Under the pieces are notes generated by a model that saw only the letters and a program-made list of their open reading frames with translations, did not search any database and was not told where the DNA came from. A program made the position numbers and the translations under genes. Below, piece after piece: positions 12,017-55,160 of a DNA stretch of 64,000 nucleotides (positions are counted from its first letter, which is position 1; each line of letters begins with the position of its first letter). This stretch comes from an uncultured delta proteobacterium (GTDB lineage: Bacteria; Myxococcota_A; Polyangia; Polyangiales; Polyangiaceae): assembly GCA_963850305.1 (NCBI GenBank), contig CAWKKR010000011.1, forward strand, positions 262,641 to 326,640, written 5' to 3'.

Positions 12017-12076
12017 CTCGCCCCGCTTGACCCAGCGAGGGACCCGCAGCACGTTCCGGCCCCGGAAAGGTCGGTC

Positions 12077-13165: not shown

Positions 13166-13215
13166 CCACGCCCGACGAACCGCGGTCTATCTCGGCCGCC
13201 GGGACCGGGACGCTC

Positions 13216-14040: not shown

Positions 14041-14534
14041 GCGTCTCGCGACGCGGAAGACGGCGCGCGGCCCGCCAGACGCAGCCGCTCCTTGCGGCGC
14101 TTCGCCGCGGCCGCGTGTCGGCGCCTGTCCTCGGCCGTCTTCGGAACGAGGGCTGGAACCGAGCGCGGCGCGCCATCCGCGTCGGTCGCCACGAACGTCA
14201 GGTACGCCTTCGTCGTGTAGCGACGCTCGCCAGTACGCGGGTCCTCCGTCTCCACGCGACACCCGACCTCCATGCTCGTGCGCCCCGCGTAGTTCACCTG
14301 CGCCTGGAGCACCACGACGTCCCCAACGTGAATGGGGACGAGGAAATCAAGTCGGTCGATCGACGCGGTGACGGCGCTGCCGGAGCAATGTCGCATCGCG
14401 GCCACGGCTCCGCAGACGTCGATCCACTGCACCAGCACGCCGCCGAAGAGAACGCCCCCGACGCCGTTCGTGTGTGTGGGCATGACGATCTGGGTCATCT
14501 CGACCCGGGAGGCAGCGGGAGTACGCGAGGGCAT
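13995..14534 (-). CDS. acyl-CoA thioesterase (hotdog fold, YciA/BFIT-like)
   Basis: Trimmed from ORF 13995..15257 to ATG 14534. The sequence reads [46 protein letters not shown]...[22 protein letters not shown]. The basic C-terminal tail overlaps the rsmI 3' end by 46 nt. Confidence 0.8.
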
Positions 14535-26218: not shown

Positions 26219-26821
26219 ATGGGAATGACGCAGACCTCGATGCCGCCGCCCCCGCCAACGCACTCCGGTGGCCGAGCCTTCATCGGCGTGATCATCGTCA
26301 TGCTGCTCATGATGGGCGGGTTACTCTACTGGAAATTCGGCAAGAAAGACGCACCTCCGCCGCCGGCTCCGATTCCATCGCAGACGGCCGCGGCCCTGCC
26401 GACATTCGACGAAGCCCCACCACCACCGCCGCCGGCCGAGCCCGACGCGGGCAAAAAAGAGGCGCCGACGAAGAGGCACGTCGTGTCGTCCGGCGGGAAT
26501 GGCGGATGCAACGCGGTGTGCTCGGGCGACGCGCCTGCCGCACTTCGCGGCGCACTCAGCGGAGCGGCGGGAAGCGTGCGCGGCTGTTATGAACGCGCCT
26601 TGCGTCAAAACCAGATGCTGCAAGGCCGCCTCGTCGTGGCAGTGAAAATCGGTCCGCACGGCCAATCGTGCGGCGCCAGCATCTCGACCGACACCCTCGG
26701 CGACCCGTCCGTAGCAAGCTGCGTGCTCCAGAAGTTCCGCGGAGGATCGTTCCCTCCGCCGATTGGGGGTTGCGCTGACCTCCAGGTTCCGATTTCATTC
26801 ATGCCGAAGACGGGCAAATGA
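26219..26821 (+). CDS. membrane-anchored Pro-rich protein with AgmX/PglI-like C-terminal domain
   Basis: A single TM helix (FIGVIIVMLLMMGGLLYW) and a Pro-rich linker precede GCYERALRQNQMLQGRLVVAVKIGPHGQ...ASCVLQKFRGGSFPPPIGG...VPISF. Confidence 0.7.
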   Translation: MGMTQTSMPPPPPTHSGGRAFIGVIIVMLLMMGGLLYWKFGKKDAPPPPAPIPSQTAAALPTFDEAPPPPPPAEPDAGKKEAPTKRHVVSSGGNGGCNAVCSGDAPAALRGALSGAAGSVRGCYERALRQNQMLQGRLVVAVKIGPHGQSCGASISTDTLGDPSVASCVLQKFRGGSFPPPIGGCADLQVPISFMPKTGK

Positions 26822-29880: not shown

Positions 29881-30823
29881 GAACGGCTGGTGTGTCGGCC
29901 GTTGCTCGGCACAGATCGATCGCCTGCACCTTGCCCGCTACAAGGACGACGTCGGCTTCTTCGGCTTCTTCGACACGATCGACGATGAAGAGGTGGCCTC
30001 CGCCTTGATCGACGCCGCGAGGCGCTGGCTGAAAAACCGTGGAATGAAGCACATCCGTGGACCGCTCTCCCTCTGTATCAACGAGGAGATCGGTTGCCTG
30101 GTGGAAGGCTTCGACACTCCGCCGATGATGTTCATGACGCATCATCATCCGTACCAGGGCGGCCTGATCGAGAAAGCCGGCATCCCGAAGATCAAGGACT
30201 TCTACGCCTGGCGCTACGAGGTCGGCGACCTGCCTCCGCGCGCCGCCAAGGCCACGGCCGAGATCGAGCAGCTCCCCGAGGTGAGCGCCCGGCACGTGGA
30301 CATGAAGAATCTCGAGCGCGACGTCCGGATCGTGATGAACGTTTTCAACGACGCCTGGACGGAAAATTGGGGATTCGTGCCTTTCACGGAGTCCGAGCTC
30401 CGGAAGATGGCGAAAGATCTGAAGCTCATCATCGACCCCGCCATCACGTATATCGCCTACGTGGATGGGGAACCCGCAGCCGTCGCCCTGGCCACACCGA
30501 ACCTGAACGAGGTCATCCGTGATCTCGACGGGAAGATATTGCCGCTCGGCTTCACGAAGCTCATTTACCGCCTCAAAGTTCGCGGCACGAAGACGGCGCG
30601 ACTCGCGATCCTCGGGATCAAGAGGAAGTTCAGGCACCAGCGAAAGTACGCCGGCCTCAGCATTTACCTGTACTCGAAGATGAACGATGCCGGCCGACGC
30701 GCGGGCTACCGCTGGGGCGAATTGTCCTGGACGCTCGAGGACAATGGCCCCGTGAACGTCGGAATCAAGTTCATGGGCGGCAAGGTCTACAAGAAGTACC
30801 GGATGTACCAGGCCGACCTCTGA
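29693..30823 (+). CDS. GNAT-fold N-acyltransferase of the family often mis-annotated dATP pyrophosphohydrolase; candidate bacterial ceramide synthase (bCerS-like)
   Basis: 376 aa with high GC3 from ATG 29693. The sequence contains NPFFEHGEGVLFTAYRNGWCVGRCSAQID, GFFGFFD, NDAWTENWGFVPFTESE and a C-terminal GYRWGELSWTLEDN. The function is inferred from adjacency to the SPT gene. Confidence 0.7.
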   Translation: MSVEIRENPVGGGSLRDFLNVVDYIYRDDPNYVRPLDMMVKDQLSTKNPFFEHGEGVLFTAYRNGWCVGRCSAQIDRLHLARYKDDVGFFGFFDTIDDEEVASALIDAARRWLKNRGMKHIRGPLSLCINEEIGCLVEGFDTPPMMFMTHHHPYQGGLIEKAGIPKIKDFYAWRYEVGDLPPRAAKATAEIEQLPEVSARHVDMKNLERDVRIVMNVFNDAWTENWGFVPFTESELRKMAKDLKLIIDPAITYIAYVDGEPAAVALATPNLNEVIRDLDGKILPLGFTKLIYRLKVRGTKTARLAILGIKRKFRHQRKYAGLSIYLYSKMNDAGRRAGYRWGELSWTLEDNGPVNVGIKFMGGKVYKKYRMYQADL

Positions 30824-30872: not shown

Positions 30873-33800
30873 GTGACGACGCTCGGCCGTACACTGGCTG
30901 GAGTGACAGCGGCGGTCGCGCTGCTTGCGGGATGTGAACGGCCGCGCCACTCCGCGGCGGCGTCAATCCACGCGCCCGCTGTGTCTGCGACGGGTCGCGC
31001 GGGTTCGGGGATCGAAGTAAATATTCGAGACGCCGCGTCGGGTACGTCGGTGGCCATCGCGCTCGCGGAGATTCCGGCGGGCGGCGTGCACTCCAATATT
31101 CTCGGCGCCGTCCACGACCGGACGGAAGATTTCGTCTCCTTCGCGAAGAGGCCGCCCGTCGAGGAGGTTCGCTATCGCGCGCGCGTCCACGCGGCGGGAC
31201 TGCGGCTCGTCGCTGGCGTCCTCGAACTGCTCGACGCGAAGGGCGCTCCCCGTGTTCGCATGGCGGCGCCTTTCGTCGTGGATCGCGGCGGACGGCACCA
31301 CGACACGGTGGTGGCCCTCGAAGGGTGCGCCGCAGACCGCGATCCGGCGGGCCCCTGGGGTCGTCCCGTCACGCCGCCGGGCGCGCATGAGTGCAGCCTT
31401 CGCGTCACGTGGGGTACGAGCGGCGATCGCATCCGGTATCCGGCCGTCCTCGACCCCGCGTGGACCGCAGCGACCAACACGATGACGTCGGCGCGGAAGG
31501 GACACACTGCGACGCTCCTCTCGACCGGAAAGGTCCTCATCGTCGGCGGCGAGACCACGAGCGGACAGACGACGACGCACCTGAAGACCGCGGAGCTCTT
31601 CGATCCGACGACGAGCACGTTCGCAGCGACGACGTCGATGACCGACGGAAGATCGTTTCACGCGGCGGTGCTACTTCAGAATGGAAATGTTCTCGTCGCA
31701 GGCGGCTCGGGTGACTCGGGTGTCCTTTCGTCGAGCGAGATCTACGATCTCTCCAAGCCTGGATTCCGGAGTTCGGGGCCGCTGAAGCAAGCCCGGAGCG
31801 AGCCCGGAGCGACACTCCTGACGACCGGAGACGTTCTTCTCACCGGCGGCATCGACGGCTCGGGAACCGTGCTGAAGGAAGCGGAGGTTTTCGCGACGGC
31901 GGGAGAAGTGTGGAGCGTGAAGGGAGACATGACCGAACGCCGGACGGGTGACTTCGTCGCCGTGTTGAATTCTGGGGCGCTCGCCATTGCCGGAATCACG
32001 ACGACGACCGGCCTCGCGGATCTCGCGGATTCCGATCTGTACGGCGAGGCGAGCGGCACCTTCAGCGCCGGGCCGAACCTGTCCCAGGAACGTTTCTACT
32101 TCGGTGGTGCCACTCTCTCGAACGGCAACGTGCTCGTCGCGGGCGGATTCGCTCTGTCGCTCGGCATGAATACCTCGACGGCGGAGTTGCTCGATCATGA
32201 CTCGGTGACGTGGTCGAGCGCCGGATCTCTCGCGATAGGGCGGGCGCACTTCGCACTCACTGCCGTGTCGGCCGGAGCCGCCGTCGCGACGGGCGGCGTC
32301 GTGATGACCAATGCGACAACCGTCGGCTCCTATCTCGCGAGTGCCGAACTGTACGACCCCATCGCGAATTCGTGGTCGGCCTTGCCGGACATGCATCAGC
32401 CGAGAGCGTTTCATACGGCGACGGCACTCCCGGACGGGAGATTGCTCGTGACGGGCGGGGAAGGCTCTTCGGGACAGCTCGATACCGCGGAGCTGCTGTC
32501 GCTCGACGCCGTGGGAAAGCCCTGCGCGACGGGCGTGACCTGTACGTCCGGGTTCTGCGCTGACGGAGTGTGCTGCGCTTCGGCGTGCGGCGCACCCTGT
32601 TATGCCTGCACGGGTGCCAGCACCGGTGAACCCGATGGCACCTGCGCCCCCGTGCTTGCCGCGAAGGACCCGCGGAACGACTGCACGGATGACGGCGCCA
32701 CGGTGTGTGGAAATGACGGCCTCTGCGACGGCGCGGGTGCCTGCCAGAAATACGCGAAGAACCCCTGCGCCCCCGAGCCTTGCGCGGCGAACTCGGACTG
32801 CACGAGCGGCGCGTGCGCGGACGGGATCTGCTGCGACGGCGCGTGCACCGGCACCTGCGAAGCATGCACCGCCGCGAAGAAGGGGGCCGGCGCGGACGGC
32901 ACTTGCGGGCCCGTCGCCGCGGGGACCGACCCCGATACGGAATGTTCGACCATGGGCGATGGTGTCTGTCGCGCGCTCGGCACTTGCGACGGGTCCGGCT
33001 CATGTGGGGTACCGACGGCCGGGACGTCCTGCGCGACCGCCGCATGTTCGGATCGTCAAACCCTGGCCGCCGCCGCCGTGTGCGGGAACCTCGGCGATTG
33101 CACGCCGTCGAAGACGGACTGTTCGCCGTTCGCGTGCGACGCCGTGGCGTTGAAATGCAAAGTAGCCTGCACGACGGACACGGACTGCGCTGCAGCCGCA
33201 CATTGCACGGCAGGGCTCTGCAAGAAGGACGCAAACGGGGTTGCGTGCACGGACGGGACCACCTGTGCGTCCGGAAACTGTGCGGACCGATATTGCTGTG
33301 ACTCGGCGTGCGACGAACAGTGTGAGGCGTGCGACGTCGCCAATTCCGAGGGGACCTGCTCACCGGTTTCCGGAGCGCCGCACGGCTCGCGCAGCGCGTG
33401 TCCCGGAACGGGGGGTTGCGCCGGAGTGTGCAACGGGCTCTCGAGCACGTGCATCTTCCGGAGCGGCACGCCGTGCGGCGCCACGACGTGCACGGCGGGG
33501 AGCGAGTCGGGTCTCGTTTGCAATGCGCTCGGCGCGTGCGTTACCGAGCCTGCAGTGACGTGCGCGCCTTTCGCCTGTGGCACGACATCCTGCAAGACGT
33601 CGTGCACGACGAGCACGGATTGCGCGACGGGAGCGACGTGCGAAGCGGACGGCGCGTGCGTCGCGCCGGAGAGCGGCTGCGCCGACGGCGGCGTCGCAAC
33701 GGAATGCGCGCCTTATGGTTGCACGGGCAACGCGTGCAAGACCTCGTGCAAGGCGGACGATGACTGCGCCAAAGGCGCTACATGCAGCGCCGGGAAGTGC

Positions 33801-34028
33801 GTGAAGGGCTCCTCGGGCGGCGGCTGCGGCTGTCGCATCGGCTCCGGCACCGGCAGCCACGATGGCCTCACGTTCGGAGCGCTGATCGCGCTACTCGGGC
33901 TCGCCCTCCGACGCGCGGAAAGGCGGCGACGCGGATCCCGCCCCGATCAGTCGCCGATCGCGTGGGCCTGCGCGGCGATTGGGCGCCGCAAGCGTATCTC
34001 GGAGTCCAGAGGCGTATCGGGTTGGTAG
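30873..34028 (+). CDS. large lipoprotein: Kelch-type beta-propeller plus long Cys-rich repeat region plus MYXO-CTERM-type sorting tail
   Basis: GTG start with lipobox LLAGC. Roughly six repeats of the type HTATLLSTGKVLIVGG...AELFDP are present. More than 90 Cys residues lie in repeats such as C.SG.C.DG.CC...C...C..C. The tail is GGGCGCRIGSG...FGALIALLGLALRRAERRRR. Confidence 0.85.
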   Translation: MTTLGRTLAGVTAAVALLAGCERPRHSAAASIHAPAVSATGRAGSGIEVNIRDAASGTSVAIALAEIPAGGVHSNILGAVHDRTEDFVSFAKRPPVEEVRYRARVHAAGLRLVAGVLELLDAKGAPRVRMAAPFVVDRGGRHHDTVVALEGCAADRDPAGPWGRPVTPPGAHECSLRVTWGTSGDRIRYPAVLDPAWTAATNTMTSARKGHTATLLSTGKVLIVGGETTSGQTTTHLKTAELFDPTTSTFAATTSMTDGRSFHAAVLLQNGNVLVAGGSGDSGVLSSSEIYDLSKPGFRSSGPLKQARSEPGATLLTTGDVLLTGGIDGSGTVLKEAEVFATAGEVWSVKGDMTERRTGDFVAVLNSGALAIAGITTTTGLADLADSDLYGEASGTFSAGPNLSQERFYFGGATLSNGNVLVAGGFALSLGMNTSTAELLDHDSVTWSSAGSLAIGRAHFALTAVSAGAAVATGGVVMTNATTVGSYLASAELYDPIANSWSALPDMHQPRAFHTATALPDGRLLVTGGEGSSGQLDTAELLSLDAVGKPCATGVTCTSGFCADGVCCASACGAPCYACTGASTGEPDGTCAPVLAAKDPRNDCTDDGATVCGNDGLCDGAGACQKYAKNPCAPEPCAANSDCTSGACADGICCDGACTGTCEACTAAKKGAGADGTCGPVAAGTDPDTECSTMGDGVCRALGTCDGSGSCGVPTAGTSCATAACSDRQTLAAAAVCGNLGDCTPSKTDCSPFACDAVALKCKVACTTDTDCAAAAHCTAGLCKKDANGVACTDGTTCASGNCADRYCCDSACDEQCEACDVANSEGTCSPVSGAPHGSRSACPGTGGCAGVCNGLSSTCIFRSGTPCGATTCTAGSESGLVCNALGACVTEPAVTCAPFACGTTSCKTSCTTSTDCATGATCEADGACVAPESGCADGGVATECAPYGCTGNACKTSCKADDDCAKGATCSAGKCVKGSSGGGCGCRIGSGTGSHDGLTFGALIALLGLALRRAERRRRGSRPDQSPIAWACAAIGRRKRISESRGVSGW

Positions 34029-34225
34029 TGCGGCGTGAAGGGCCCCTCGTACGCGATGAGGCGGCGGCGCAGCGCGGCGCTCTCGTGCCGAAGTCCCTGT
34101 GCTTCGGCGGCAATGCGCACGAGGGCAATCGCCAGAAATACCACGGCAGACCAGTACGGCCCCCCGAGCGCCCAGGCTCCGAGCGCGAAGGACCAGTTGA
34201 ACATCAGACCCGTGTAGTGACCCAC
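33947..34225 (-). CDS. small membrane protein, hypothetical
   Basis: Start is GTG 34225 or ATG 34204 (MFNWSFALGAWALGGPYWSAVVFLAIALV). One or two TM helices, high GC3. It overlaps the tail of the convergent 30873..34028 gene by 82 nt. Confidence 0.55.
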   Translation of the reverse strand: MGHYTGLMFNWSFALGAWALGGPYWSAVVFLAIALVRIAAEAQGLRHESAALRRRLIAYEGPFTPHYQPDTPLDSEIRLRRPIAAQAHAIGD

Positions 34226-34316
34226 GGTGCGAATGAGACGCCAAAATTCCCGACCGGGCCAAGCGAACGCCTGCGTTTTGTCGCCCGGCCCGCTTCAGTA
34301 ACGGGCGCGAAGGTCT

Positions 34317-35261
34317 TCAGTCGGCGGCGACCACGCGATTGCGCCCGTCCCGCTTGGCGGCATAAAGTCGTCGGTCGGCGACCGCGACGAGCCGCTCCCG
34401 ATCCACTCGATCGACGCACGCAAACGACGCGCAGCCGATGCTGATGGTCACCGCGAGCGACCGCCCGTCGTGAACCGTTCGCAGCTCTTCCAGCGCCTTT
34501 CGGAGACGTTCGGCCGCGCGGGCGGCTCCCGACAACGTGATGCCGCGCAACAGGACCACGAACTCTTCGCCGCCATACCGCGCAAGCAGATCTTCCGTCC
34601 GCAGAAGGAACTCGGTCGTCGATGCGACGTTCTTCAGCACGGCGTCGCCCGCCAGGTGCCCATGAGTGTCATTGACCTTCTTGAAGTGATCGATGTCGAA
34701 AATGAGGACGGACCCCTGACTCCGATGGCGCGTCGCATAAGCGAGCTCTGCGTCCAGGCGTTCCAGAAAGAAGTGACGGTTGTAGGCACGGGTCAGGGCG
34801 TCCCGAACGCTGCTCTCGTACAGTTGCCGTAAGATCCTCTCCTGGTTCTCGTCGGTGACCGAAAAGCGGAAATGGACGCGGGGCCCGAGCTGCACGACCG
34901 CACCGTCGACGAGAACCTGGCGTTCGATGCGCTCCCCGTTGACGTACGTCCCGTTGCTGGAACCGAGATCTTCCACAAAATATTGCCCGCCCTCGTAGAC
35001 GACGCGGGCATGCATGCGACTGATACCTTCGTCGTCGACCACGACCGTGTTGTCCGAGTGACGGCCGAGGCGGATTGCGTCGCCCAGCGACGTGACGTGG
35101 CCGGCTTGAATCGAGTCCATGCGCACGAGGACGGCCCGATTGCGCTCGTCACCCTTCCATACCGGAAAGGTTTCGTTGGTGATCGTCTGTTGTTCGGGGC
35201 GAGCGCGGCCCGTCGCCGGTGGCGTCATCGAATCGATGGGCGCAGGTCGGTCGCTCTTCAC
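34317..35261 (-). CDS. FHA-domain diguanylate cyclase (FHA-GGDEF), intact I-site
   Basis: The FHA domain reads IRLGRHSDNTVVVDDEGISRMHARV...DLGSSNGTYVNGERI. The GGDEF domain has IFDIDHFKKVNDTHGH and RTEDLLARYGGEEF (RxxD plus GGEEF). GTG 35261 directly abuts the upstream TAG; an alternative start is ATG 35228. Confidence 0.85.
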   Translation of the reverse strand: MKSDRPAPIDSMTPPATGRARPEQQTITNETFPVWKGDERNRAVLVRMDSIQAGHVTSLGDAIRLGRHSDNTVVVDDEGISRMHARVVYEGGQYFVEDLGSSNGTYVNGERIERQVLVDGAVVQLGPRVHFRFSVTDENQERILRQLYESSVRDALTRAYNRHFFLERLDAELAYATRHRSQGSVLIFDIDHFKKVNDTHGHLAGDAVLKNVASTTEFLLRTEDLLARYGGEEFVVLLRGITLSGAARAAERLRKALEELRTVHDGRSLAVTISIGCASFACVDRVDRERLVAVADRRLYAAKRDGRNRVVAAD

Positions 35262-36329
35262 CTACGGTCGAGAATGTATCACGACCGGGACGCGGCGATC
35301 GACCGGTCCGTCGAAGGGCGGCGCCTGCATCTCTCCCGGCGAGCACCGGCGCGCACCGGAAAGCGAGCCGGGTATTTCAGACGACAGATTCTCGACCGCC
35401 AGCGACGTCACTCGGCCCTCGAGCGAGGCGAGCTTGCGCAGAGGCTCGTCGGCGACGAGGACGTGTACGTGTCTTCCCGGTGGTGGAACGACGATCGTCT
35501 GGCCGCTGACGTCGAGGCCCACCCAACCAGCTCCCGCCGGAAGCAGTTCGCCGCCGACGAGCAATGTGTCCCGGTAGCGGACTGCCGCCGCGGCTTCATC
35601 CTGCGTCACGAGACCTCTCGGGAAGCGGACCTCCGCGCGAACGAGTTCGCTCGCGAGCGCTCTCGCAAATCCTCTCACCTCATCGATCGATCCGCTCGCT
35701 GCGACCACTCTCGGGCTCAAACATCCGCGCTGGTCGAAGAGGATCACGTCGTGCGCGACGCGCCGGGCAAGGTCATCGATATACGGTGACGCCGTGCAAC
35801 CGACCCCGAGCGCCACCACGCCCAGCCCGGGGCCGTGTGGATGAAACTCCACTCCCGACGGGAGAGCGCGCTGCACGTCACGAAGCGTCGCGTCGGTTCC
35901 GTATGCCCAGAATCGATCCCCGCTGACCGGCGTCAGGGTGTCGACGATCTCGAACGAGCCTGGCGCCCCCTGGTCGAGCAGGCGGACCATGGTCGTTTCC
36001 CGTCGGGAAGGACGCACCCGGACGACCGACGATGCGGCGAGCGCCAGAGCGAGAGCCCTGTGCGCCCCGACGAACACATTGGCGCTGAGCAAGACGTGAG
36101 CACGAGGCGCCTGTTCGACGGATGCGATCAGTGAGGACACCTCCGCTTCGCTCGGGTTCGACTCCAGCGCAGCTTCGAGTGCGAGCGCGACGCCCTGAGC
36201 TGAAAGGCCAGTGGACGCCGGCAAGACCCGACGCGCTTCGACGCCGAGCGGGTCGGTCGGATCGGCGATACGTCGCGCCGCATCGACCAATCGGCGAATG
36301 CGCTCTCGGGCTGAGGACCGGGAGCTCAC
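35262..36329 (-). CDS. LuxC-like acyl-CoA/acyl-protein reductase (aldehyde-forming)
   Basis: Trimmed from ORF 35262..36686 to GTG 36329, which overlaps the upstream stop (GTGA). The catalytic-Cys context is ILFDQRGCLSPRVV. The size (355 aa) and the position after a LuxE homologue fit LuxC. Confidence 0.7.
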   Translation of the reverse strand: MSSRSSARERIRRLVDAARRIADPTDPLGVEARRVLPASTGLSAQGVALALEAALESNPSEAEVSSLIASVEQAPRAHVLLSANVFVGAHRALALALAASSVVRVRPSRRETTMVRLLDQGAPGSFEIVDTLTPVSGDRFWAYGTDATLRDVQRALPSGVEFHPHGPGLGVVALGVGCTASPYIDDLARRVAHDVILFDQRGCLSPRVVAASGSIDEVRGFARALASELVRAEVRFPRGLVTQDEAAAAVRYRDTLLVGGELLPAGAGWVGLDVSGQTIVVPPPGRHVHVLVADEPLRKLASLEGRVTSLAVENLSSEIPGSLSGARRCSPGEMQAPPFDGPVDRRVPVVIHSRP

Positions 36330-37444
36330 GCGCCGAGCACCATTTCCTCGATCGCGAGCGAACAGCCCCGCGGGGTTGCGTTGGCGCTTCGGCCGAGGAG
36401 CTCGACTCCGTTTCCGTTCGGGCGAATCAGGTCCTGGGTCACGATGGCGACGGCGGAGTCGATGTTCCCGAGATCGACGAATCGAGCGAGGCCGATCCCA
36501 TTTTTCGGAACGGGTCGAAGAGTCTCCCGATCGACCGCCGAGACGCGAAGCCACGGCGGTGGGAGAAAAACCCCACTCGGCCCGCGAACGGCCGCGCCCG
36601 GCGCAGTGCCCTCGTAAAGCTGGCTCGTGAGCTCGGTCATGCCGTACTCGCCGACGACACGGTCCTCGGAGATCCCGAAGGCGCACGCGACGTCGCGCCG
36701 GAGCTCGACGGACGATAGCTCGCGCGTCCGCCCCTTGAACCCCCCGGTGGTCATGACGAGTGTTCGTGGCGGAGCCGGCAACCGACGGCCGGCGAGAGCG
36801 TCCAGCAGCAGCACGAGTGCGAAGCTCGTGGAGAGCACCAGCAGCGGTTCACCGCGGCGCTGCGCGAGCTCGACGAGTCGTTCGAGCCCGGCGAGATCGA
36901 TACCGCCTTCCTGCGCGAGCCAGCGGCCTTCCGGTTCCGCATCGAACCCGGCGTCGATGCCGCGACCGTCGAACTCTTCGAGAAATACGCGCATCATGAA
37001 TCCGAGCGAGGACGTGGGAGGGGTCCCAGGGGGCGGCGCGAGCGACACGACGACGCGAGGGCCACTGCCCGGCTCGGCGAGCATCCGCGCTCCCCACGCG
37101 AGGGACAGCGCGCGATACGTATCGGTGCGGCGAAGGGGATGACGGCCGCGCGCGCCGCCGGTCGTACCGCTGGTCGAGAAGCACGCCGTATCGAGCTCCG
37201 GAGAGTGCGCTGCGACCCTCGTGAGGCGAAACGCATCGACGGGCACCGCCGGGATGGCGGCGACGCTGTCGAGCGCCGTGCGGTGCGCTTCGACCAATCG
37301 GCGAAAGCCCGGAACGTGCCGGACCTGGAAACGCGCGATATCGAGCGCGAGCGCGTCGAACGCCTCGCCATCGCCGGACGAGCCTCGACGGGCAAAGCCC
37401 TGCACACGAGCGTGGAGGGCGTCGGATTCCGAAAGTACGTTCAC
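36326..37444 (-). CDS. LuxE-like acyl-protein synthetase (adenylate-forming)
   Basis: Trimmed from ORF 36326..37918 to GTG 37444, which overlaps the upstream stop (GTGA). The sequence contains FSTSGTTGGARGRH (P-loop-like), TTGGFKGR and EYGMTELTSQ. Confidence 0.7.
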   Translation of the reverse strand: MNVLSESDALHARVQGFARRGSSGDGEAFDALALDIARFQVRHVPGFRRLVEAHRTALDSVAAIPAVPVDAFRLTRVAAHSPELDTACFSTSGTTGGARGRHPLRRTDTYRALSLAWGARMLAEPGSGPRVVVSLAPPPGTPPTSSLGFMMRVFLEEFDGRGIDAGFDAEPEGRWLAQEGGIDLAGLERLVELAQRRGEPLLVLSTSFALVLLLDALAGRRLPAPPRTLVMTTGGFKGRTRELSSVELRRDVACAFGISEDRVVGEYGMTELTSQLYEGTAPGAAVRGPSGVFLPPPWLRVSAVDRETLRPVPKNGIGLARFVDLGNIDSAVAIVTQDLIRPNGNGVELLGRSANATPRGCSLAIEEMVLGA

Positions 37445-38772
37445 GAGTGAAGAGTCTGAAGGGCGTCGACGGCGGCGGCAACGAATCCGTCCAGCAAAGT
37501 GTCGGCGACGTTGAGCGCAGGAGTCAGGACCACGATCTCCCGGTTGCCCCCGCCTGTCGAGACGACATAGCCGACCTCCAGAAGTCGCCGCGCCACGCGT
37601 GTCGCGGCGCCAGGCTTCGACCCGAGGTCGATCCCGATCATCAGGCCGGCTCCGCGCACTTCGACGACTCCCGGCACGTCGCGCAAGGCTTCGCCCAGCC
37701 GCTCGAGCCAGAGGGCCCCGCGCTCGGCACTCCTCGCAACCAGGCGTTCGCGCGACAACACGTCGAGCGTCGCGATCGCCGCAGCGCACCCCAGCGGCGC
37801 TCCCGCGAACGTCGAGGTGTGAACGACCTCGGGCTCGCGACGCCAGGCGCGCATGACGGAGTCCGAGCCCACGCATGCGCTGATGGGAATGCCGCCACCG
37901 AGTCCCTTGCCGAGGCAAACTACGTCAGGTCGGGCGCCTTCGGTCACCGAGCGCAGCATGGAACCCGCGCGACCGAGCCCGGTCCAGATCTCGTCCGCGA
38001 CGAGCAGCGCCCCTTGCTCCCGCGCGAGAGCTCCGAGGGCGGCGACGAACCCCGCCGGTGGAACGACGCATCCGCCGCGTCCGAGAAGCGGCTCGATCAC
38101 GACTGCGCCCACGGTGCCACTCGCGAGGGTCGCCCGCGCGTCGGCGAGCACTCGCTCGGACGCGGCGGCGCTCACGGGAAAATCCAGGAACGTCACGTGC
38201 GGGTTCAGCTGGGCGGCGAAGGGTGCTCGATATCCGTCCCGCAACGCCGACGCGGCCAGCGGAGCGTACGACAGTCCGTGATATCCGCCTCGAAACGCCA
38301 GGACTCCAGGTCTCCCGGTGGCGAGCAGCGACGTCTTCAATGCCGCGGTGACCGCATCAGCGCCCGACTGCCCGAGGATGACGCGGGCTCCCGGCTCTGG
38401 AAACAGCCCCGACAGCCGCTCGAGGAGCGCGATCTTCGCGTCCGAGGGATGAACGTCCCCCAGGGCCTGCAACAGTCGGGCGCTCGCTAGCTCGACGACA
38501 CGCAGGTGGCTCGGGTGCCCATGACCGAGGAGCAAAGCCCCGAAGCCCGCGGCGAGATCGACGTACCGGTTGCCGTCGACATCCTCGACGTTCGAGCCCT
38601 TCGCCGTCGCAAACACCACCGTGCCCGCCGGAACCTCGGCCGCCACTCCGCGTTGCGGGCCGACTCCGCGCGGACCCATCGGCGCCGCCGTGCGCGACGC
38701 GCGAGTGAGCCAGGTGCGAGATTGAGGACCCGGTGGAGTACAGACCAGCCGCGGAGGTTCGTCGCCCGTCAC
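37441..38772 (-). CDS. class-III pyridoxal-phosphate aminotransferase (GabT/omega-transaminase-like)
   Basis: GTG 38772 lies 1 nt after the upstream TGA. The sequence contains PPGPQSRTWL, DVDGNRYVDLAAGFGALLLGHGHP, GADAV, ADEIWTGLGRAG and CLGKGLGGGIP (PLP Lys). Confidence 0.8.
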   Translation of the reverse strand: MTGDEPPRLVCTPPGPQSRTWLTRASRTAAPMGPRGVGPQRGVAAEVPAGTVVFATAKGSNVEDVDGNRYVDLAAGFGALLLGHGHPSHLRVVELASARLLQALGDVHPSDAKIALLERLSGLFPEPGARVILGQSGADAVTAALKTSLLATGRPGVLAFRGGYHGLSYAPLAASALRDGYRAPFAAQLNPHVTFLDFPVSAAASERVLADARATLASGTVGAVVIEPLLGRGGCVVPPAGFVAALGALAREQGALLVADEIWTGLGRAGSMLRSVTEGARPDVVCLGKGLGGGIPISACVGSDSVMRAWRREPEVVHTSTFAGAPLGCAAAIATLDVLSRERLVARSAERGALWLERLGEALRDVPGVVEVRGAGLMIGIDLGSKPGAATRVARRLLEVGYVVSTGGGNREIVVLTPALNVADTLLDGFVAAAVDALQTLHS

Positions 38773-38773
38773 C

Positions 38774-39697
38774 TCAAGAGCACACCTTGTTGCGGCCACC
38801 CCGCTTGGCTTCGTAGAGCTTTTCGTCCGCACGCTGGATAAGGTCGTTCGCCGTGTCGCTATCGTGAACGAGCGCGCAGCCGATGCTGATCGTCACGGGG
38901 ATCTTCTCCCCCTGGAACACGAAGGGATGATCCGCCACTTTCTCGCGAAGATTTTCTGCGAGGCTGGTCGCGCCTTCCATCTCCGTTTCCGGGAGGACGA
39001 TGACGAACTCTTCGCCGCCGTATCGAGCAAAGACCTCGTCCCGGCGGATACGGCTCTGGACCGCCTCGGCGAGCTCACGGAGGACGTAATCACCCGCAAG
39101 GTGTCCATAGTGGTCGTTGATGCGCTTGAAAAAGTCGATGTCGAACATCAACAAGCTGAGCGGTCGATCGTGCCGGCGGGACCGGATGATCTCGCGGTCC
39201 AGTGACTCGAACAGGTAGCGCTTGTTGTGGATCTGAGTGAGACCATCGACGATGGTCATCCGATAAATTTCTTCGTGGTACTTCGCTTCCGCATCCTCGC
39301 CCGAGAGGTACTTGAGGATGGTCGGACCCACCTTCACGCGATCGTTCGAGCGGAGCTGAGCCTCCCGAACGATCTGCTTTTCGTTCACGTAGGTGCCGTT
39401 CGTGGAACCGTCGTCGACCGCGTACCAATGGTTGCCGCGGCGCTCGAAGTGCGCGTGCTGGCGCGACACGGAGTCGCCCTCGAGAACGATCTGGTTGTCT
39501 GCGCCGCGCCCCACGTGGAGCCGCGGGCCCTCGAGCACGAAGCGCTTGCCGAGCAAGTTCGGCTCCTTCGTGTAGATGACCACGAGGCAGTCGTTCCCCG
39601 TCTCCCCAGGCTCGTCGTCGAGCTTTCCCTGGATGACCTGGGTGACCCGTGTTTTTTCGTCGAAGTCGCTCGCCACGAAGCAGACCTTAAACTCCAA
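38774..39697 (-). CDS. FHA-domain diguanylate cyclase (FHA-GGDEF), degenerate I-site
   Basis: The FHA domain reads LHVGRGADNQIVLEGDSVSRQHAHF...DDGSTNGTYVNEKQI. The GGDEF domain has MFDIDFFKRINDHYGH and RRDEVFARYGGEEF. Start is TTG 39697 or the GTG 21 nt downstream. It has more A/T-ending codons than its neighbours. Confidence 0.8.
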   Translation of the reverse strand: MEFKVCFVASDFDEKTRVTQVIQGKLDDEPGETGNDCLVVIYTKEPNLLGKRFVLEGPRLHVGRGADNQIVLEGDSVSRQHAHFERRGNHWYAVDDGSTNGTYVNEKQIVREAQLRSNDRVKVGPTILKYLSGEDAEAKYHEEIYRMTIVDGLTQIHNKRYLFESLDREIIRSRRHDRPLSLLMFDIDFFKRINDHYGHLAGDYVLRELAEAVQSRIRRDEVFARYGGEEFVIVLPETEMEGATSLAENLREKVADHPFVFQGEKIPVTISIGCALVHDSDTANDLIQRADEKLYEAKRGGRNKVCS

Positions 39698-39925
39698 ACT
39701 ATAGACCGGCCTCCGAGAGGCGGGGGCGTTCTCCGAAGGTTCTGCAGAGGGCAGACTCCTGGCTCGAAATCGAAGGTGGGAATGCCACCCACAAGCCCGG
39801 ACGGACCCTAGTTTCTAGCGACGACTCGCGTCAAGGGAGCCGTCAACGGGCCCCTATCATTCGAGTAGCATGGTATCGGGCTTCGAAACGCCAGGTCCGG
39901 AGGGCCTGATGTGGGGGAACGTGGT

Positions 39926-41800
39926 TCAGGGCGCTGCCTCCTCCAGCGGAACGTCGAGTCCGACCAGACGCATCAGGCGCAGCGCGTTGCCGCCGGTCAC
40001 CGGGCCCGGGCGCAACCGGTAATCGAACGTCATCTTGCCGTCGGCGATGTTTTCGCGAAAATGGCACTGCTCCACGCGCGTCATGAGCTCGTCGGGGAGC
40101 TGGCAGAGCCCGGCATCATGGGTGGACACAGCTCCGATCGCGCCACTCCGGAGCATCTCTTCGAGCATCCATCGTGCGCCGATCTGCCGCTCGCGGGAGT
40201 TCGTCCCGTGAAGGATTTCGTCGAGAAGGAAGAATACAGGCAAGGCGCCCGCGGTCGCGTCCCGGACACCTTTGAGGCGCGCGACCTCGGCGTAGAAATG
40301 GCTGACGCCCAGGGACAGAGAATCACTGATCCGCAGGCTCGTGCGGACCGCGAGCGGAGACATGCGGAGCCGGGCGGCACAGACCGGCGCGCCCGCGAGG
40401 GCCAGAACTGCGTTGATGCCCATGGCACGGAGCAGAGTGCTCTTTCCGGACATGTTCGAGCCGGTAACAAGCAACGCGCGGCCCGGTTCCGCGAGGCGAA
40501 CGTCGTTGACGACGCGCGTCTCCGCCCCGAGGAGCGGGTGTCCGAGTGCGCGGGCGTCGTAGTGCGCCGGTGAGTCAGTGACGTCGGGCCAGGTGAACCC
40601 GGGCTCGTCGAAGGAGAGCCCTGCGAACGCGCTCAGCGCTTCGACCTCGCCGAGCGCGCGGAACCAGGCCCGCGCCGCGCCGCCCACGTCGCGTTGCCAC
40701 GCCTCCAGCCGGAGCAGGCAATGCGCGTCCCAGAGCAGGAACGCATTCGCGAACGGGTGGACGAGGCCGTTGTATCTGAGGTCGAACCACCCGACGATGC
40801 GCTCGAAACGCCGCATGGCAATCGAGGGGGCGAGCGAATTCGACAGCAAGTTCCGTCGGATCTCGCCGAGCAGGCCCGACTTCGGATCGAGCCTCTCGAT
40901 GAGTTCGAACATCGGTCCGTATCGGAGGAACGCGCCTTGCGTGGACGATACGGAGGCGAAGACGAGATCCGCTTCCTTCCGGACGGCCGCGACGACCAGA
41001 AGCTCGCCGAGAAACGGGATCGTCCAGGCCGCCGCGGACCAGCCGAACACGCGCGCCCCGAACACGAGAGCCAGCGTGACGACCGGAAGGGCATAGACGG
41101 CACCGATCAGCGCGGTGCGCCTGGAAAGCCAGGGCTCTCGCTCCGCCCACTCGAGCAGAGCCGCCGGATCCGGCGGCTCCGCGCGCGTTCCACGCTTCGC
41201 CACCTTGCTCTCGCCGGCCAATCCCGGCGGCGGCTCGACCACCGCGATGGACAGTGCTTCGAGTCGCTGGCGTTCTTCCAGGAGCGGCGCGAGCATCCGG
41301 ACCGCCTCCTGGCGAGCGCGAATCCGCGACGGTTCGACGGGTTCGGTCAAGAACCGAGCGAGCGCCTCCTGGCCAAACCGGGTGTGTGCAACGTTGATTC
41401 GCTGGTAGAGCGACCCGGCTCCGAACAGGTCGAGATCTACCGAGTACGGGTGCTCGCTGGAAGCGAACCGCGCCCCGTCGTCGCGGAGAGTCTTCCAGTT
41501 CGATGTAACCCGCGCGAGCGCGTCGAGGTTCACGCGAGCCATCCGCGTCGCGTCGTCTTCTGCTGCGATCACCCGTGCGTGCCACGCGACGAAGCCCAGG
41601 AACAGAACGCCGGAGATGACGGCGACGGGCACGCCCTCGGTCTGACCGCCGAGCGTCGCCAGGACGACGGCGATGACCGCGATCCCGAACGACAACCCGC
41701 GCAGATTCGAAACGAGTCGCGAACGCCGTCCCAGCTCGGAAGCTCGCTTTTGAAACCGATCGACGCGCTCGGGGTATGGGTTGGACGACACGGCGGGCAT
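39926..41800 (-). CDS. MutS-family ATPase (domain V) with N-terminal membrane helices; no mismatch-binding or Smr domain seen
   Basis: Trimmed from the 1041-aa ORF to ATG 41800 (MPAVSSNPYPERVD). Hydrophobic helices occur near the N-terminus and mid-protein. The Walker A is LLVTGSNMSGKSTLLRA. The sequence also contains SHFYAEV, LLDEILHGTNS and STHD. Confidence 0.8.
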   Translation of the reverse strand: MPAVSSNPYPERVDRFQKRASELGRRSRLVSNLRGLSFGIAVIAVVLATLGGQTEGVPVAVISGVLFLGFVAWHARVIAAEDDATRMARVNLDALARVTSNWKTLRDDGARFASSEHPYSVDLDLFGAGSLYQRINVAHTRFGQEALARFLTEPVEPSRIRARQEAVRMLAPLLEERQRLEALSIAVVEPPPGLAGESKVAKRGTRAEPPDPAALLEWAEREPWLSRRTALIGAVYALPVVTLALVFGARVFGWSAAAWTIPFLGELLVVAAVRKEADLVFASVSSTQGAFLRYGPMFELIERLDPKSGLLGEIRRNLLSNSLAPSIAMRRFERIVGWFDLRYNGLVHPFANAFLLWDAHCLLRLEAWQRDVGGAARAWFRALGEVEALSAFAGLSFDEPGFTWPDVTDSPAHYDARALGHPLLGAETRVVNDVRLAEPGRALLVTGSNMSGKSTLLRAMGINAVLALAGAPVCAARLRMSPLAVRTSLRISDSLSLGVSHFYAEVARLKGVRDATAGALPVFFLLDEILHGTNSRERQIGARWMLEEMLRSGAIGAVSTHDAGLCQLPDELMTRVEQCHFRENIADGKMTFDYRLRPGPVTGGNALRLMRLVGLDVPLEEAAP

Positions 41801-41823
41801 CCTTGCCGCGCCCGCGGCGGACG

Positions 41824-42432
41824 TCACTTCTTCTTCATCGTCACGACCAGGGTCGCCGCGACCTGGGGACCATCCGGATAGCCGACGAAGCGCCGGTCCA
41901 GCACGTCCGCCAGGCATCTTGCGGTCGATACGCTCACTCCATGCCGCTTTTGCACGCTGACACCCTCCGCGCGTCCTCGTCCCAGCACGAGGAACCGGAG
42001 TTCCACCTCGCCCCCGTCGGGTGCGACTCCGCCGGCCTTGGCGCACCCCAGGAACCGTTCCCGCGCCCGGACGAGGTTCTTCCTCGAGTCGGGGAGCGAC
42101 CCTTCGTCGGCGGTCACCTTGCCGACTTCGACGGTGAACCTCGGCGCGTCCGCGGCTGGCTGCGTCGCGTCGGACGCCGGTGCGGGGGCTTCCTTCTGCG
42201 GTTCCGCGGGCACGACCGCCATCAGCTTCGGCGGCTCGGCGCTCGGGTGAGAAGGCGGCGCTTCGCGAAGTCTGGCCGCCTCCTCCTCCGTGAGACAGCG
42301 GACGAGCGCGCCGTGGCCGTCGGACAGGCGGCCCCAGGCGCAAGTCGCATCGATCGGTGCCTGCGCGCGGGACGTCGCGGAGATTCCGAGGATCGCTGCG
42401 GTGAGAGACAGAGATAACCGTCGCTGTTCCAT
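41824..42432 (-). CDS. secreted protein with AgmX/PglI-like C-terminal domain
   Basis: The signal peptide is MEQRRLSLSLTAAILGISATSRAQA. A Pro/Ala linker precedes FLGCAKAGG...VELRFLVLGRGRAEGV...ARCLADVLDRRF...ATLVVTM. Confidence 0.7.
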   Translation of the reverse strand: MEQRRLSLSLTAAILGISATSRAQAPIDATCAWGRLSDGHGALVRCLTEEEAARLREAPPSHPSAEPPKLMAVVPAEPQKEAPAPASDATQPAADAPRFTVEVGKVTADEGSLPDSRKNLVRARERFLGCAKAGGVAPDGGEVELRFLVLGRGRAEGVSVQKRHGVSVSTARCLADVLDRRFVGYPDGPQVAATLVVTMKKK

Positions 42433-42535
42433 GACACTCCTTGAACGCCGCGAGGTCAGCGTTCGTTCGGCGAAACAAAGCGAGCCATGATTTTGTCCTC
42501 CGACGCAAGAAATCGGCTACGAACGCGGCCTGCTG

Positions 42536-43723
42536 GTGAAACCGAGCCCCTCCCCCGACGCCGCCTCCGTGGTGCTGACCTTCCTCGAGAGCGTGGGCCG
42601 CCGCTCCGAGGCCGAGCTCTACCTGAAACTGTTCCGGGAAGTCCCGAAGGAGAGCTTTGCCATCATCGCGGCCGAGGCCGCGGTCATCCGCTATGCCGGG
42701 GGGTCTCTCGTCGAGCAGCTTCGATTCTTGCGGGAGCTCGGGTTGTTCGCGCCGATCGTCGTCGGATTGTTCGAGCCCGTGAGCGCCGAGAAAGCGGCGA
42801 CTCGCCTTGCCCGACGATCGGCCGAGATGGGCGCCGTCGTGGAGGGCCAGCTCGACGGGCAGCTCGTCTCGCGCGTCCGGACGGAGCTCGCGGAAGAAAA
42901 CTTGCCCATCGTGTCCCTGGCCGCCGCCGGAGAGGAGACGCTCGCCGACCGCTTCGAACGCATCGGACAGCTTGCAGGCGAGCTCGGAACCCGGAAGATC
43001 GTCGTCTTGAGGCGGCGCGGTGGGCTCGCCCGGCCAGGCCGCTCCGCTCACGCCGAGCGTGGGATCTCGGTGGTCAATCTCCGCACGGATCTCCCCTCCT
43101 TGCGCGAGCCACGCGCCCTGCCCCCGGACGACGCGGAGCTGCTCGATCGTCTCGAGACGCTGCTGCTCCGGCCCGACTGTGCTCGCGCCGTCGCCAGCGT
43201 GACGTCACCGTTCAACCTGCTACGCGAGCTGTTCACGGTGAAGGGCGCCGGGACACTGATCAAGCGGGGCACCGCGATCTTGCGTCACGATACCATCTCC
43301 ACTTTCGATGCATTGCGCGTCGTCTCGCTGCTCGAATCGAGCTTCGGTAGAAAGCTGCTCAGGGACCCGTTCGCCGTGACGCCGCTCGCCGTCTATCTCG
43401 AAGAGAACTATCGCGCCGCGGCCATCCTGGTGGAAGCTCCCATCGCCCCTTATCTGGCAAAGTTCGCCGTCGACCGCATCGCGCAGGGCGAAGGCATGGG
43501 GCGCGACCTCTGGGAGACGATCGCGCGGGATCATCGCGCCGTGTACTGGCGAGCGCGGGTGGAAAACCCCATCGCTAGCTGGTATGCATCCCTGTGCGAC
43601 GGCATGATCAAGGTCGGTAACTGGACTGTCTATTTCCGGGGCGTGGACACCAAGGATGTCCCGCGAATCGTCGACGATGCCGTGGCGAGGCCAGAGGACT
43701 TCGCCGGGCCGGAGGCGTCCTAG
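42536..43723 (+). CDS. N-acetylglutamate synthase-like protein (amino-acid-kinase-like N-domain plus DUF619-type NAT domain)
   Basis: GTG start. The C-terminal domain contains LFTVKGAGTLIKRG, YLAKFAVDRIAQGEGMGRDLW, YWRARVENPIASWY and GNWTVYFRG. Confidence 0.65.
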   Translation: MKPSPSPDAASVVLTFLESVGRRSEAELYLKLFREVPKESFAIIAAEAAVIRYAGGSLVEQLRFLRELGLFAPIVVGLFEPVSAEKAATRLARRSAEMGAVVEGQLDGQLVSRVRTELAEENLPIVSLAAAGEETLADRFERIGQLAGELGTRKIVVLRRRGGLARPGRSAHAERGISVVNLRTDLPSLREPRALPPDDAELLDRLETLLLRPDCARAVASVTSPFNLLRELFTVKGAGTLIKRGTAILRHDTISTFDALRVVSLLESSFGRKLLRDPFAVTPLAVYLEENYRAAAILVEAPIAPYLAKFAVDRIAQGEGMGRDLWETIARDHRAVYWRARVENPIASWYASLCDGMIKVGNWTVYFRGVDTKDVPRIVDDAVARPEDFAGPEAS

Positions 43724-55020: not shown

Positions 55021-55160
55021 CTCGCCGATCGATTGGCAACAAATGACCCTTCATTGTCAAGAAATGACCTCCCTTGCTCGCCGACCGATCCGTAGAATCA
55101 GGGTGTAGCCGCGCGTGGATCCGATGTGATCCGCAGCAATCACCGGTAGATGAGGCGTCC

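Follow-up and report, generated by a model that had tools for sequence, protein, structure and literature searches.

A Polyangiales operon that may couple DgcB-type cyclic di-GMP synthesis to a LuxE/LuxC/aminotransferase route from carboxylic acid to amine

Introduction

The LuxC–LuxE reductase of Photobacterium phosphoreum, known from a structure determined by cryo-electron microscopy (7xc6), is a two-protein system in which an adenylating enzyme acylates a cysteine near its own C-terminus and then hands the acyl group to a cysteine of a partner with the aldehyde dehydrogenase (ALDH) fold (the acyl-carrying cysteines and the mechanism are reviewed in PMC12041015). We describe here five genes, two of them for relatives of these proteins, that lie on the minus strand at 34317–39697 of a stretch of 64,000 nucleotides (the window; about 67% GC) from an uncultured soil myxobacterium of the family Polyangiaceae (assembly GCA_963850305.1, contig CAWKKR010000011.1, positions 262,641 to 326,640). 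From 5' to 3' they encode a diguanylate cyclase of FHA-GGDEF architecture (DGC1), a class-III aminotransferase, a LuxE-like and a LuxC-like enzyme, and a second FHA-GGDEF cyclase (DGC2). With somewhat better than even confidence, we interpret them as a conserved Polyangiales operon in which kinase-gated synthesis of cyclic di-GMP (c-di-GMP), of the type represented by DgcB of Bdellovibrio, is joined to a route from carboxylic acid to amine made up of the LuxE-like enzyme, the LuxC-like enzyme and the aminotransferase (below, the trio).

The resemblance to LuxC–LuxE extends to both cysteines, which align, and to the genes, which are adjacent and translationally coupled. The differences are that the sequences are very distant, that the LuxC-like protein is shorter, that there is neither a LuxD thioesterase nor a luciferase, and that the pair is here combined with an aminotransferase and signalling proteins. 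The nearest experimental precedent is provided by TabE, a stand-alone LuxC-like reductase, and TabA, an omega-transaminase, which together make dodecylamine (10.1101/2025.08.11.669332). In this system (for tambjamine BE-18591, in Streptomyces), as in the fused PigE/TamH enzymes, the aldehyde comes from reduction of a thioester by a LuxC-like or TR enzyme, and an omega-transaminase converts it to a primary amine; the PigE model is among the NCBIfam matches of the window's aminotransferase. TabE/TabA and PigE/TamH, however, take acyl groups bound to acyl carrier protein (ACP) or coenzyme A (CoA), and do so within secondary-metabolite clusters, whereas the present locus has a LuxE-type ATP-dependent loader, lacks a carrier protein, and lies among housekeeping genes and not in a natural-product cluster.

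Two pathways of primary metabolism, ArgB–ArgC–ArgD and LysZ–LysY–LysJ, follow a similar plan (ATP-dependent activation of a carboxylate, reduction to a semialdehyde, class-III transamination), and the window's aminotransferase has some of its best scores with the ArgD and LysJ models; but these pathways activate their substrates as acyl phosphates, where the present enzymes would use an adenylate and an enzyme-bound thioester, and the aminotransferase falls below every ArgD, LysJ and GabT cut-off and has lost the arginine for binding of the substrate carboxylate. Non-luminous LuxE and LuxC homologues also occur beside aminotransferases in flagellin or polysaccharide glycosylation islands of Enterobacteriaceae and Aeromonas (PMC4875605, PMC7874193, PMC7575072), but these islands carry ACP, FabG, an acyl-CoA ligase, glycosyltransferases and aminotransferases of the DegT/VioA type, none of which is present here. 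As to the cyclases, Bdellovibrio DgcB (Bd0742; structure 6hbz) becomes active once its FHA domain has captured the protein's N-terminal tail in phosphorylated form (PMC6733907), and the flanking proteins of the operon share its full-length architecture, its FHA pocket, its GGEEF site and a threonine-containing N-terminal tail; they differ from it in that DGC1 has RRDE for the RxxD of the inhibitory site, and in their association with metabolic enzymes, an operon of that kind not having been described for DgcB. The first-pass annotation of the window, made from the letters of the sequence and without database searches, did not recognize the trio as a described pathway, and our literature search, too, found no paper on it.

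Five genes without intergenic space

Direct reading of the sequence bore out the gene coordinates (Table 1) and all four junctions of the first-pass annotation, and every motif that it quoted was found and mapped in the translations. The junctions span −4 to +1 nt: a single base (G) separates the stop codon of DGC1 (TGA, 38774–38776) from the GTG start of the aminotransferase gene at 38772 (TGA-G-GTG, 38776–38770); the LuxE-like and LuxC-like genes each overlap the gene before them by GTGA (37441–37444 and 36326–36329, respectively); and the stop codon of the LuxC-like gene (TAG, 35262–35264) directly abuts the GTG of DGC2 at 35261 (TAG-GTG, 35264–35259). The boundaries of the LuxE-like (P0001) and LuxC-like (P0121) genes are exactly those of the public gene calls, and the start codons chosen for the other three are consistent with alignments of orthologues.

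Separate promoters and terminators between the genes had been named beforehand as evidence that would speak against a single unit. Our scans found no promoter- or terminator-like site at any junction of the five genes, and there is no room for one. A stringent sigma-70 scan called no promoter-like site, and weak terminator-like sites numbered eight (4.3 ± 2.3 expected), four of them inside the five genes. The lack of intergenic space and of signals at the junctions, as read from the sequence, is what would be expected if the five genes were co-transcribed. Close packing by itself is ordinary for a high-GC operon; it is the conservation of the arrangement elsewhere that exceeds chance.

The LuxE-like and LuxC-like enzymes

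All five domain assignments of the first-pass annotation lie above the Pfam gathering thresholds, LuxE and LuxC included, and motifs and alignments confirmed that the catalytic signatures are intact in all five proteins. The LuxE-like protein scores 38.3 bits against PF04443 (cut-off 24.9), only the C-terminal 40% of the model being covered, and the LuxC-like protein 56 bits against PF05893 (cut-off 21), also in a partial match. Neither reaches the NCBIfam equivalog for its luminescence counterpart (26.6 bits with NF052244, cut-off 550, for LuxE; 18.3 bits with NF052251, cut-off 750, for LuxC), and the margin is so wide that we regard the two as distant members of their families and not as orthologues.

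Comparison by profiles and residues refines this view. A profile of the LuxE-like family had LuxE (7xc6_E) as its sole match in the PDB (E = 3.4e-13), with Cys361 of the LuxE-like protein (in RGCSL) aligned to Cys364 of P. phosphoreum LuxE (in KGCSL); this cysteine is invariant in the family, all members found having RGC[SN]L at the C-terminus, and the motifs TSGTTG and EYGMTE are at residues 91–96 and 266–271. The corresponding profile for the LuxC-like family matched LuxC (7xc6_A) over residues 60–419 (E = 1.7e-25), and aligned FDQRGCLSP (residues 198–206) with DQQAC, the acyl-cysteine motif of LuxC, which puts Cys203, invariant in an alignment of 17 sequences, at the position of the acyl-carrying cysteine. 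The LuxC-like protein is about 120 residues shorter than LuxC (355 against 477). In an AlphaFold2 model (pLDDT 86), the LuxE-like protein most resembles, by Foldseek, adenylate-forming ligases of the PaaK family, which act on small aromatic or short acids; a match of this predicted structure fixes the fold, not the substrate.

An aminotransferase without the carboxylate-binding arginines

The aminotransferase has a score of 262 bits with PF00202 (Aminotran_3), above the gathering threshold, and the lysine of LGKGLGGG that would bind pyridoxal 5'-phosphate (PLP) and the cofactor-binding aspartate of ADEIWTG fall on their counterparts in PuuE, GabT and ArgD. None of its 70 NCBIfam matches reaches its cut-off, the best being ArgD (245 bits against 457). 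Its closest relatives in NCBIfam and the PDB (ArgD, GabT, PuuE, putrescine aminotransferase, LysJ and PigE) are enzymes that interconvert aldehydes and omega-amines. When the protein is aligned with PuuE, three GabTs and ArgD, leucine is seen to replace the arginine of [FY]HGR[TS] (YHGLS, residues 164–168), and valine the arginine of the C-terminal R-x-x-PPL; we take these to be the positions by which Escherichia coli GabT holds the carboxylate of its substrate and the alpha-carboxylate of glutamate or 2-oxoglutarate.

The replacements are not peculiar to the window. Among the aminotransferases linked to LuxE-like genes, the first position is occupied by Leu, Met, Cys or Asp, and never by Arg, in 38 of 38, and the second arginine is absent from 35 of the 37 in which that region could be aligned. 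By its sequence, then, the enzyme belongs to a dedicated LuxE-linked clade, and as the carboxylate-binding arginine is replaced across this clade, the aldehyde substrate is probably one without a distal carboxylate. Clustering with housekeeping ArgD or GabT enzymes had been named in advance as a reason to abandon the proposed pathway; the missed NCBIfam cut-offs and the replacement of both arginines point the other way, and on the same two grounds (all equivalogs being below cut-off) we discarded ArgD, GabT, PatA, BioA and EctB as identities for the enzyme.

The two FHA-GGDEF cyclases

Both cyclases exceed the Pfam gathering thresholds for both of their domains (GGDEF and FHA, respectively: 168 and 68 bits for DGC1; 152 and 78 bits for DGC2). 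DGC1 aligns with DgcB (6hbz) from end to end (E = 4.6e-56), and DGC1 and DGC2, which are paralogues of about 40% identity, are both full-length DgcB homologues with a conserved N-terminal threonine tail: [DE]EKTRVTxV in all 16 orthologues of DGC1, and EQQT[IL]T in DGC2 and its orthologues. The residues of the phosphothreonine pocket of the FHA domain (GR, SxxH, NG) are intact in both proteins, as are the GGEEF active site, the DxD metal site (FDIDxFKxxND) and GHLAGD, the aspartate of which, we assume, speaks against the variant type of GGDEF domain that makes cyclic GMP-AMP. The inhibitory (I) site, five residues upstream of GGDEF, is a canonical RxxD (RTED) in DGC2, as the first-pass annotation had it; the RRDE of DGC1, described there as degenerate, is identical in all 16 orthologues and so represents a conserved departure and not decay.

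Conservation of the trio and of its cyclase neighbour

The distribution of these genes was surveyed with tblastn and jackhmmer, one genome being taken per species, which gave 80 loci (referred to by L numbers). In at least 53 of them a LuxE-like gene has a LuxC-like gene as its direct neighbour, and in 38 an aminotransferase gene is found within 7 kb of the pair, in either of two orders (aminotransferase–LuxE–LuxC and LuxE–LuxC–aminotransferase). The trio, for which the first-pass annotation had suggested a test of neighbourhood conservation, is therefore co-conserved, and its distribution is not confined to Myxococcota: it was found in a Pseudovibrio metagenome-assembled genome (MAG), in Acidobacteriota, Vulcanimicrobiota/Eremiobacterota, Eisenbacteria and Verrucomicrobiia, and in several high-GC MAGs labelled Spirochaetales or Rickettsiales. 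The occurrence of two gene orders in so many phyla argues strongly that the three enzymes work together.

Within Polyangiales an FHA-GGDEF gene is located directly upstream of the aminotransferase gene in 16 of 17 loci, including those of Minicystis rosea DSM 24000 and of a Labilithrix MAG, and the same is true of two further metagenomic contigs (L085 and the contig that encodes P0064); in several loci the stop codon of the cyclase gene overlaps the start codon of the aminotransferase gene. DGC2 is present at the equivalent position only in the three closest relatives (L007, L023 and L085). The bracketing of the enzymes by two cyclases, to which attention was drawn at the outset, is thus real in the window but special to these four genomes, the general form being a single upstream cyclase. 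Across the order the genes form part of a larger syntenic block, NAT/MutS_V-like/FHA-GGDEF/aminotransferase/LuxE/LuxC; the window, L007 and L023 also have in common a Kelch gene and a small open reading frame (ORF) further along (only these two relatives could be checked).

Other arrangements of the family deserve mention in their own right. At L018 a protein with FHA, GAF, sigma54-activator and HTH domains is encoded (7812–9755) directly upstream of a LuxE–LuxC pair that has neither an aminotransferase nor a GGDEF gene, so that a second kind of FHA regulator occurs at this enzyme family. In Bacteroidota (L067, L074–L076, L078–L084), LuxE-like genes of the RGCN type have no LuxC-like gene within 7 kb and sit in housekeeping synteny that includes the genes for TyrRS and dihydroorotase, and the neighbours in Flavobacteria and Gemmatimonadota look like phylum-level synteny.

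A proposed scheme, and the observations that weigh against it

How might the five proteins work together? By analogy with Bdellovibrio DgcB, a Ser/Thr kinase would phosphorylate the FHA-GGDEF enzymes on their conserved threonine tail, the phosphorylated tail would be bound by the FHA domain, and two GGDEF domains, brought together in this way, would make c-di-GMP; DGC2 would be feedback-inhibited through its RxxD site, and DGC1 probably not, or weakly. On the metabolic side, if LuxC–LuxE is a good guide, the LuxE-like enzyme would adenylate a carboxylic acid and load it as a thioester onto its own C-terminal Cys361, and the acyl group would then pass to Cys203 of the LuxC-like partner, where NAD(P)H-dependent reduction would give the aldehyde, which the class-III aminotransferase, acting like other omega-aminotransferases, would turn into a primary amine. 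Gene order, domain identities, catalytic residues and conservation between genomes are observations, and each catalytic step, co-transcription and a functional tie of c-di-GMP to the amine are inferences. The enzymatic scheme is the chemistry predicted by the first-pass annotation and the interpretation best supported by the evidence; the progression from acid to aldehyde to amine is chemically sound and has a precedent in TabE/TabA (10.1101/2025.08.11.669332), although the words 'fatty' and 'lipid-derived' that accompanied it are unproven. The further suggestion, that the enzymes are wired to kinase and c-di-GMP signalling, is plausible, with the reservation that the cyclase neighbour is confined to one order. 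The logic of the route and the parts of the signalling system are both already known; it is their joining that is seen in one bacterial order.

Several features of the enzymes and of their genomic setting weigh against this interpretation. The Pfam matches of the LuxE-like and LuxC-like proteins, as noted, are partial and accompanied by scores far under the NCBIfam equivalog cut-offs, and some 120 residues of LuxC have no counterpart in the LuxC-like protein. Racemases of the same fold as the aminotransferase nearly tie with transaminases (169 bits for ACL racemase, 180 for PuuE), so that transaminase activity is likely rather than certain, and the arginine that usually holds the alpha-carboxylate of glutamate or 2-oxoglutarate is missing, which bears on the amino donor. 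The near-equal scores of racemases and epimerases, and the loss of both canonical carboxylate-binding arginines, would also fit a situation in which the class-III enzyme has another task than to aminate the product of LuxC, being a racemase or epimerase, or supplying the acid substrate (by converting a keto acid to an amino acid, for instance), so that the pathway would end in an aldehyde or an amino-aldehyde. We think this very improbable, as the PLP lysine, the aspartate of DE[IV] and the general transaminase motifs are kept, the nearest NCBIfam and PDB families are omega-transaminases that accept aldehydes, and the pairing of a reductase with a transaminase has been documented repeatedly (TabE/TabA, PigE; 10.1101/2025.08.11.669332).

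The signalling side of the proposal meets difficulties of another kind. None of 21 trios outside Polyangiales has a GGDEF gene beside it; a close relative, with 58% identity, has the trio without the cyclase; and in L013, L023 and L085 a gene on the opposite strand (for a metallophosphoesterase-like protein or a beta-carbonic anhydrase) is inserted between the cyclase and aminotransferase genes, so that co-transcription of cyclase and enzymes cannot be universal. Could the cyclases and the enzymes be functionally unrelated, the FHA-GGDEF gene being a conserved neighbour in an inherited syntenic block, and the compact junctions the outcome of streamlining, an operon of convenience? The synteny of the whole block from NAT to LuxC across the order means that part of the association could indeed be a matter of inheritance, and DGC1 is far more conserved among its orthologues (66–91% identity) than are the enzymes (44–70%), as would be expected of a regulator with a role of its own. 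However, the adjacency of the cyclase and aminotransferase genes has outlasted rearrangements in which the LuxC-like gene moved (L002, L010) or the enzyme genes were spread apart (L016); several genomes have overlapping stop and start codons; in four, the opposite end of the operon has gained another FHA-GGDEF paralogue; and at L018 it is again an FHA protein, of a different sort, that is encoded directly upstream of the LuxE–LuxC pair. We regard the lack of any functional tie as rather unlikely, while taking it more seriously than the other alternatives considered here, and continue to favour an operon that couples c-di-GMP synthesis to the trio.

What is the substrate?

The first-pass annotation took the substrate to be a fatty acid. 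This proved to derive from family names: the enzymes are distant from the LuxE and LuxC of luminescence, and some of their relatives occur in contexts that have nothing to do with lipids. The operon contains no LuxD, ACP or other lipid gene, and a search for lipid-gene partners of the trio ended in their rejection, no ACP, thioesterase or acyltransferase having been found, and neighbours of the serine palmitoyltransferase (SPT) family being sporadic. The SPT-like gene of the window, one of an SPT/N-acyltransferase pair that the first-pass annotation noted 3.5 kb away, is transcribed convergently with the operon; a Kelch-repeat gene lies between them, and L007 and L023 are the only genomes to share its synteny. 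We keep a fatty or other hydrophobic acid as our default guess, and the substrate probably has no distal carboxylate, to judge from the aminotransferase.

One such context is that of L022, from an uncultured Pseudovibrio sp. (MAG contig CANNAV010000077.1), where the trio is included in a cluster at 191–12419. On the trio strand are genes for QueD/PTPS, a HAD phosphatase, an adenylosuccinate-synthetase-like protein, a phosphoribosyl pyrophosphate (PRPP)-transferase and a GMP-reductase-like protein, with an adenylosuccinate-lyase-like gene further upstream; QueE is encoded on the opposite strand, and neither QueC nor a UbiD decarboxylase is visible in the cluster. (A PaaK-like ligase is also encoded there.) The gene set matches the pathways to 7-deazapurine nucleosides of the tubercidin/toyocamycin type (PMC6112128). 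At this locus the obvious carboxylate is the 7-carboxy group, and the cluster suggests that this trio carries out a conversion from 7-carboxy to 7-formyl to 7-aminomethyl. Our literature search found no paper linking LuxE or LuxC to deazapurines.

The trio of the window might by the same chemistry act on a polar heteroaromatic carboxylate and not on a lipid, for example on 7-carboxy-7-deazaguanine or its nucleotide, to give a 7-aminomethyl-7-deazapurine of the preQ1 type without QueC or QueF, or on 6-carboxy-tetrahydropterin. Besides the seven relevant genes of the L022 cluster, this idea draws on the position of the L022 LuxE-like protein, which nests among Myxococcota trio sequences in a rough neighbour-joining tree; on nine Verrucomicrobiota loci with a QueD/PTPS gene directly 3' of LuxE–LuxC, which lack the aminotransferase and may put the reductase pair on its own to work in pterin or deazapurine metabolism; on the presence of a QueD/PTPS gene 2.5 kb from the operon in M. 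rosea; and on the aminotransferase, which in lacking the carboxylate-binding arginine would suit a formyl-deazapurine as well as a fatty aldehyde. But the L022 proteins are only 35–39% identical to those of the window, and may differ in specificity; the Verrucomicrobiota loci, apart from having no aminotransferase, count as one phylogenetic event only; and neither the window nor the surroundings of 15 other Polyangiales operons yielded a que or pterin gene, the sole exception in the order being the QueD gene of M. rosea, which is on the opposite strand and possibly there by chance. A heteroaromatic substrate is, on this evidence, improbable for the Polyangiales enzymes. We give similarly little credence to a broader proposal, that the trio is a widespread and unrecognised core pathway leading from a non-lipid carboxylate to an aminomethyl compound (candidate reactions being 7-carboxy-7-deazaguanine to preQ1, independently of QueC and QueF, and carboxypterin to aminomethyl-pterin), coupled in Polyangiales to kinase-gated c-di-GMP; were it true, Polyangiales would tie a GTP-derived metabolite directly to Ser/Thr-kinase-gated c-di-GMP synthesis.

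Eight of the Verrucomicrobiota loci with QueD/PTPS are L033, L041, L045, L048, L054, L056, L060 and L061, the last of which (9983–14244) has an aldo-keto reductase gene after QueD/PTPS and two rhomboid genes upstream. A distinct conserved module is seen in MAGs of Acidobacteriota, Verrucomicrobiia and Vulcanimicrobiota (L035, L058, L063, L070), with the order, as at L063:8215–14610, of a PLP enzyme of Cys/Met metabolism, CoA_binding_2, LuxE-like, LuxC-like, aminotransferase and a GFO/IDH/MocA oxidoreductase. Most of the other trios outside Polyangiales have housekeeping neighbours (BipA, RecQ, RpoA, UDG, MutS2). A gene for a B12-binding radical-SAM protein (DUF4070) directly follows the trio at L059:12485–14056 and L069:12447–13979, and a homologue of it is encoded about 5 kb downstream of the trio at L029:17150–18739, where the gene after the trio is that for MutS2.

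Ends of the operon and neighbouring genes

DGC1 is separated by a spacer of 228 nt from the MutS_V-like gene upstream. Within it the promoter-like element of Table 1, TTGACG-N18-TAGGGT, is kept in the window, L007 and L023 though the surrounding spacer diverges; since it escaped the stringent sigma-70 scan, we grade it as tentative. The hairpin 3' of DGC2 is likewise a tentative terminator, since its folding energy is no better than that of shuffled sequence (z = −0.64). An Rfam search of 33500–40500 (E <= 1) revealed no riboswitch or other RNA family. The small hydrophobic ORF beyond the hairpin has no Pfam match, and its homologues are found only in L007 and L023 (54–62% identity).

Table 1. 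Coordinates of the operon genes and flanking features in the window
Feature	Coordinates	Strand	Length	Evidence and remarks
DGC1, tail-FHA-GGDEF diguanylate cyclase of DgcB type	38774–39697	−	307 aa	Pfam and 6hbz match
Class-III (omega-type) PLP aminotransferase	37441–38772	−	443 aa	Pfam Aminotran_3; PLP Lys in LGKGLGGG (residue 289)
LuxE-like adenylate-forming acyl-protein synthetase	36326–37444	−	372 aa	Pfam LuxE; Cys361 in RGCSL
LuxC-like thioester reductase, aldehyde-forming (ALDH superfamily)	35262–36329	−	355 aa	Pfam LuxC; Cys203
DGC2, second tail-FHA-GGDEF cyclase	34317–35261	−	314 aa	Pfam; intact motifs
Promoter-like element TTGACG-N18-TAGGGT	39805–39834	−		Conserved in window, L007 and L023; tentative
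Hairpin and UUUU, possible weak end of transcription unit	34243–34292	−		GC-rich stem of 11–12 bp, then AAUUUUGG; tentative
Small hydrophobic ORF	33947–34225	−	92 aa	91 nt 3' of DGC2; membership of unit uncertain

Some further genes may be recorded. The MutS_V-like ORF at 39926–43051 has 1041 codons in its longest form, against 617–628 aa in relatives, and its N-terminal part is probably over-extended or lineage-specific. The SPT-like alpha-oxoamine synthase ORF (28042–30823) has, as called, an N-terminal extension of about 140 aa; the NCBIfam model that it matches best is that for serine palmitoyltransferase, with 449 bits where the cut-off is 640. A 376-aa ORF without any family match overlaps it; this ORF gave a match only in L007, the synthase being conserved in both L007 and L023. 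In one Polyangiaceae MAG, and in no other locus, a synthase of the BioF/Kbl/SPT family is encoded directly 3' of LuxC on the same strand (L006:8306–9664). Elsewhere in the window, a single 784-aa ORF (55074–57428) fuses a 2Fe-2S ferredoxin, an FAD/NAD-binding reductase and a fatty-acid desaturase domain, and a 200-aa protein with an AgmX/PglI C-terminal ('myxo_SS_tail') domain, similar to GltG/GltJ, is encoded at 26219–26821. About 5 kb downstream of the operon in a Polyangia MAG (contig_23579; L001:15755–17757, the same as L005) there is a weak Profilin match together with an Actin (PF00022) match; these are presumably eukaryote-like cytoskeleton genes of the kind reported from Haliangium.

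Significance

If the trio, a widespread and unstudied set of enzymes, works as proposed, three proteins would suffice to turn a free carboxylic acid into a primary amine with no need for a carrier; this compact route, found across many phyla, is missing from pathway annotation. It would help to assign function to thousands of genes annotated as 'acyl-protein synthetase' or 'acyl-CoA reductase', and could offer biocatalysis an alternative to cascades of carboxylic acid reductase and transaminase. Two cautions for annotation follow from the comparisons made here: the name LuxE or LuxC is not equivalent to 'fatty acid', and the bracketing of the operon by two cyclases is a lineage-specific elaboration. 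For the myxobacteria themselves, the Polyangiales operon would be a rare case of a DgcB-type kinase-gated cyclase hard-wired to a defined metabolic module, and the association of cyclase and trio would provide a handle on what the abundant FHA-GGDEF proteins of these organisms control.

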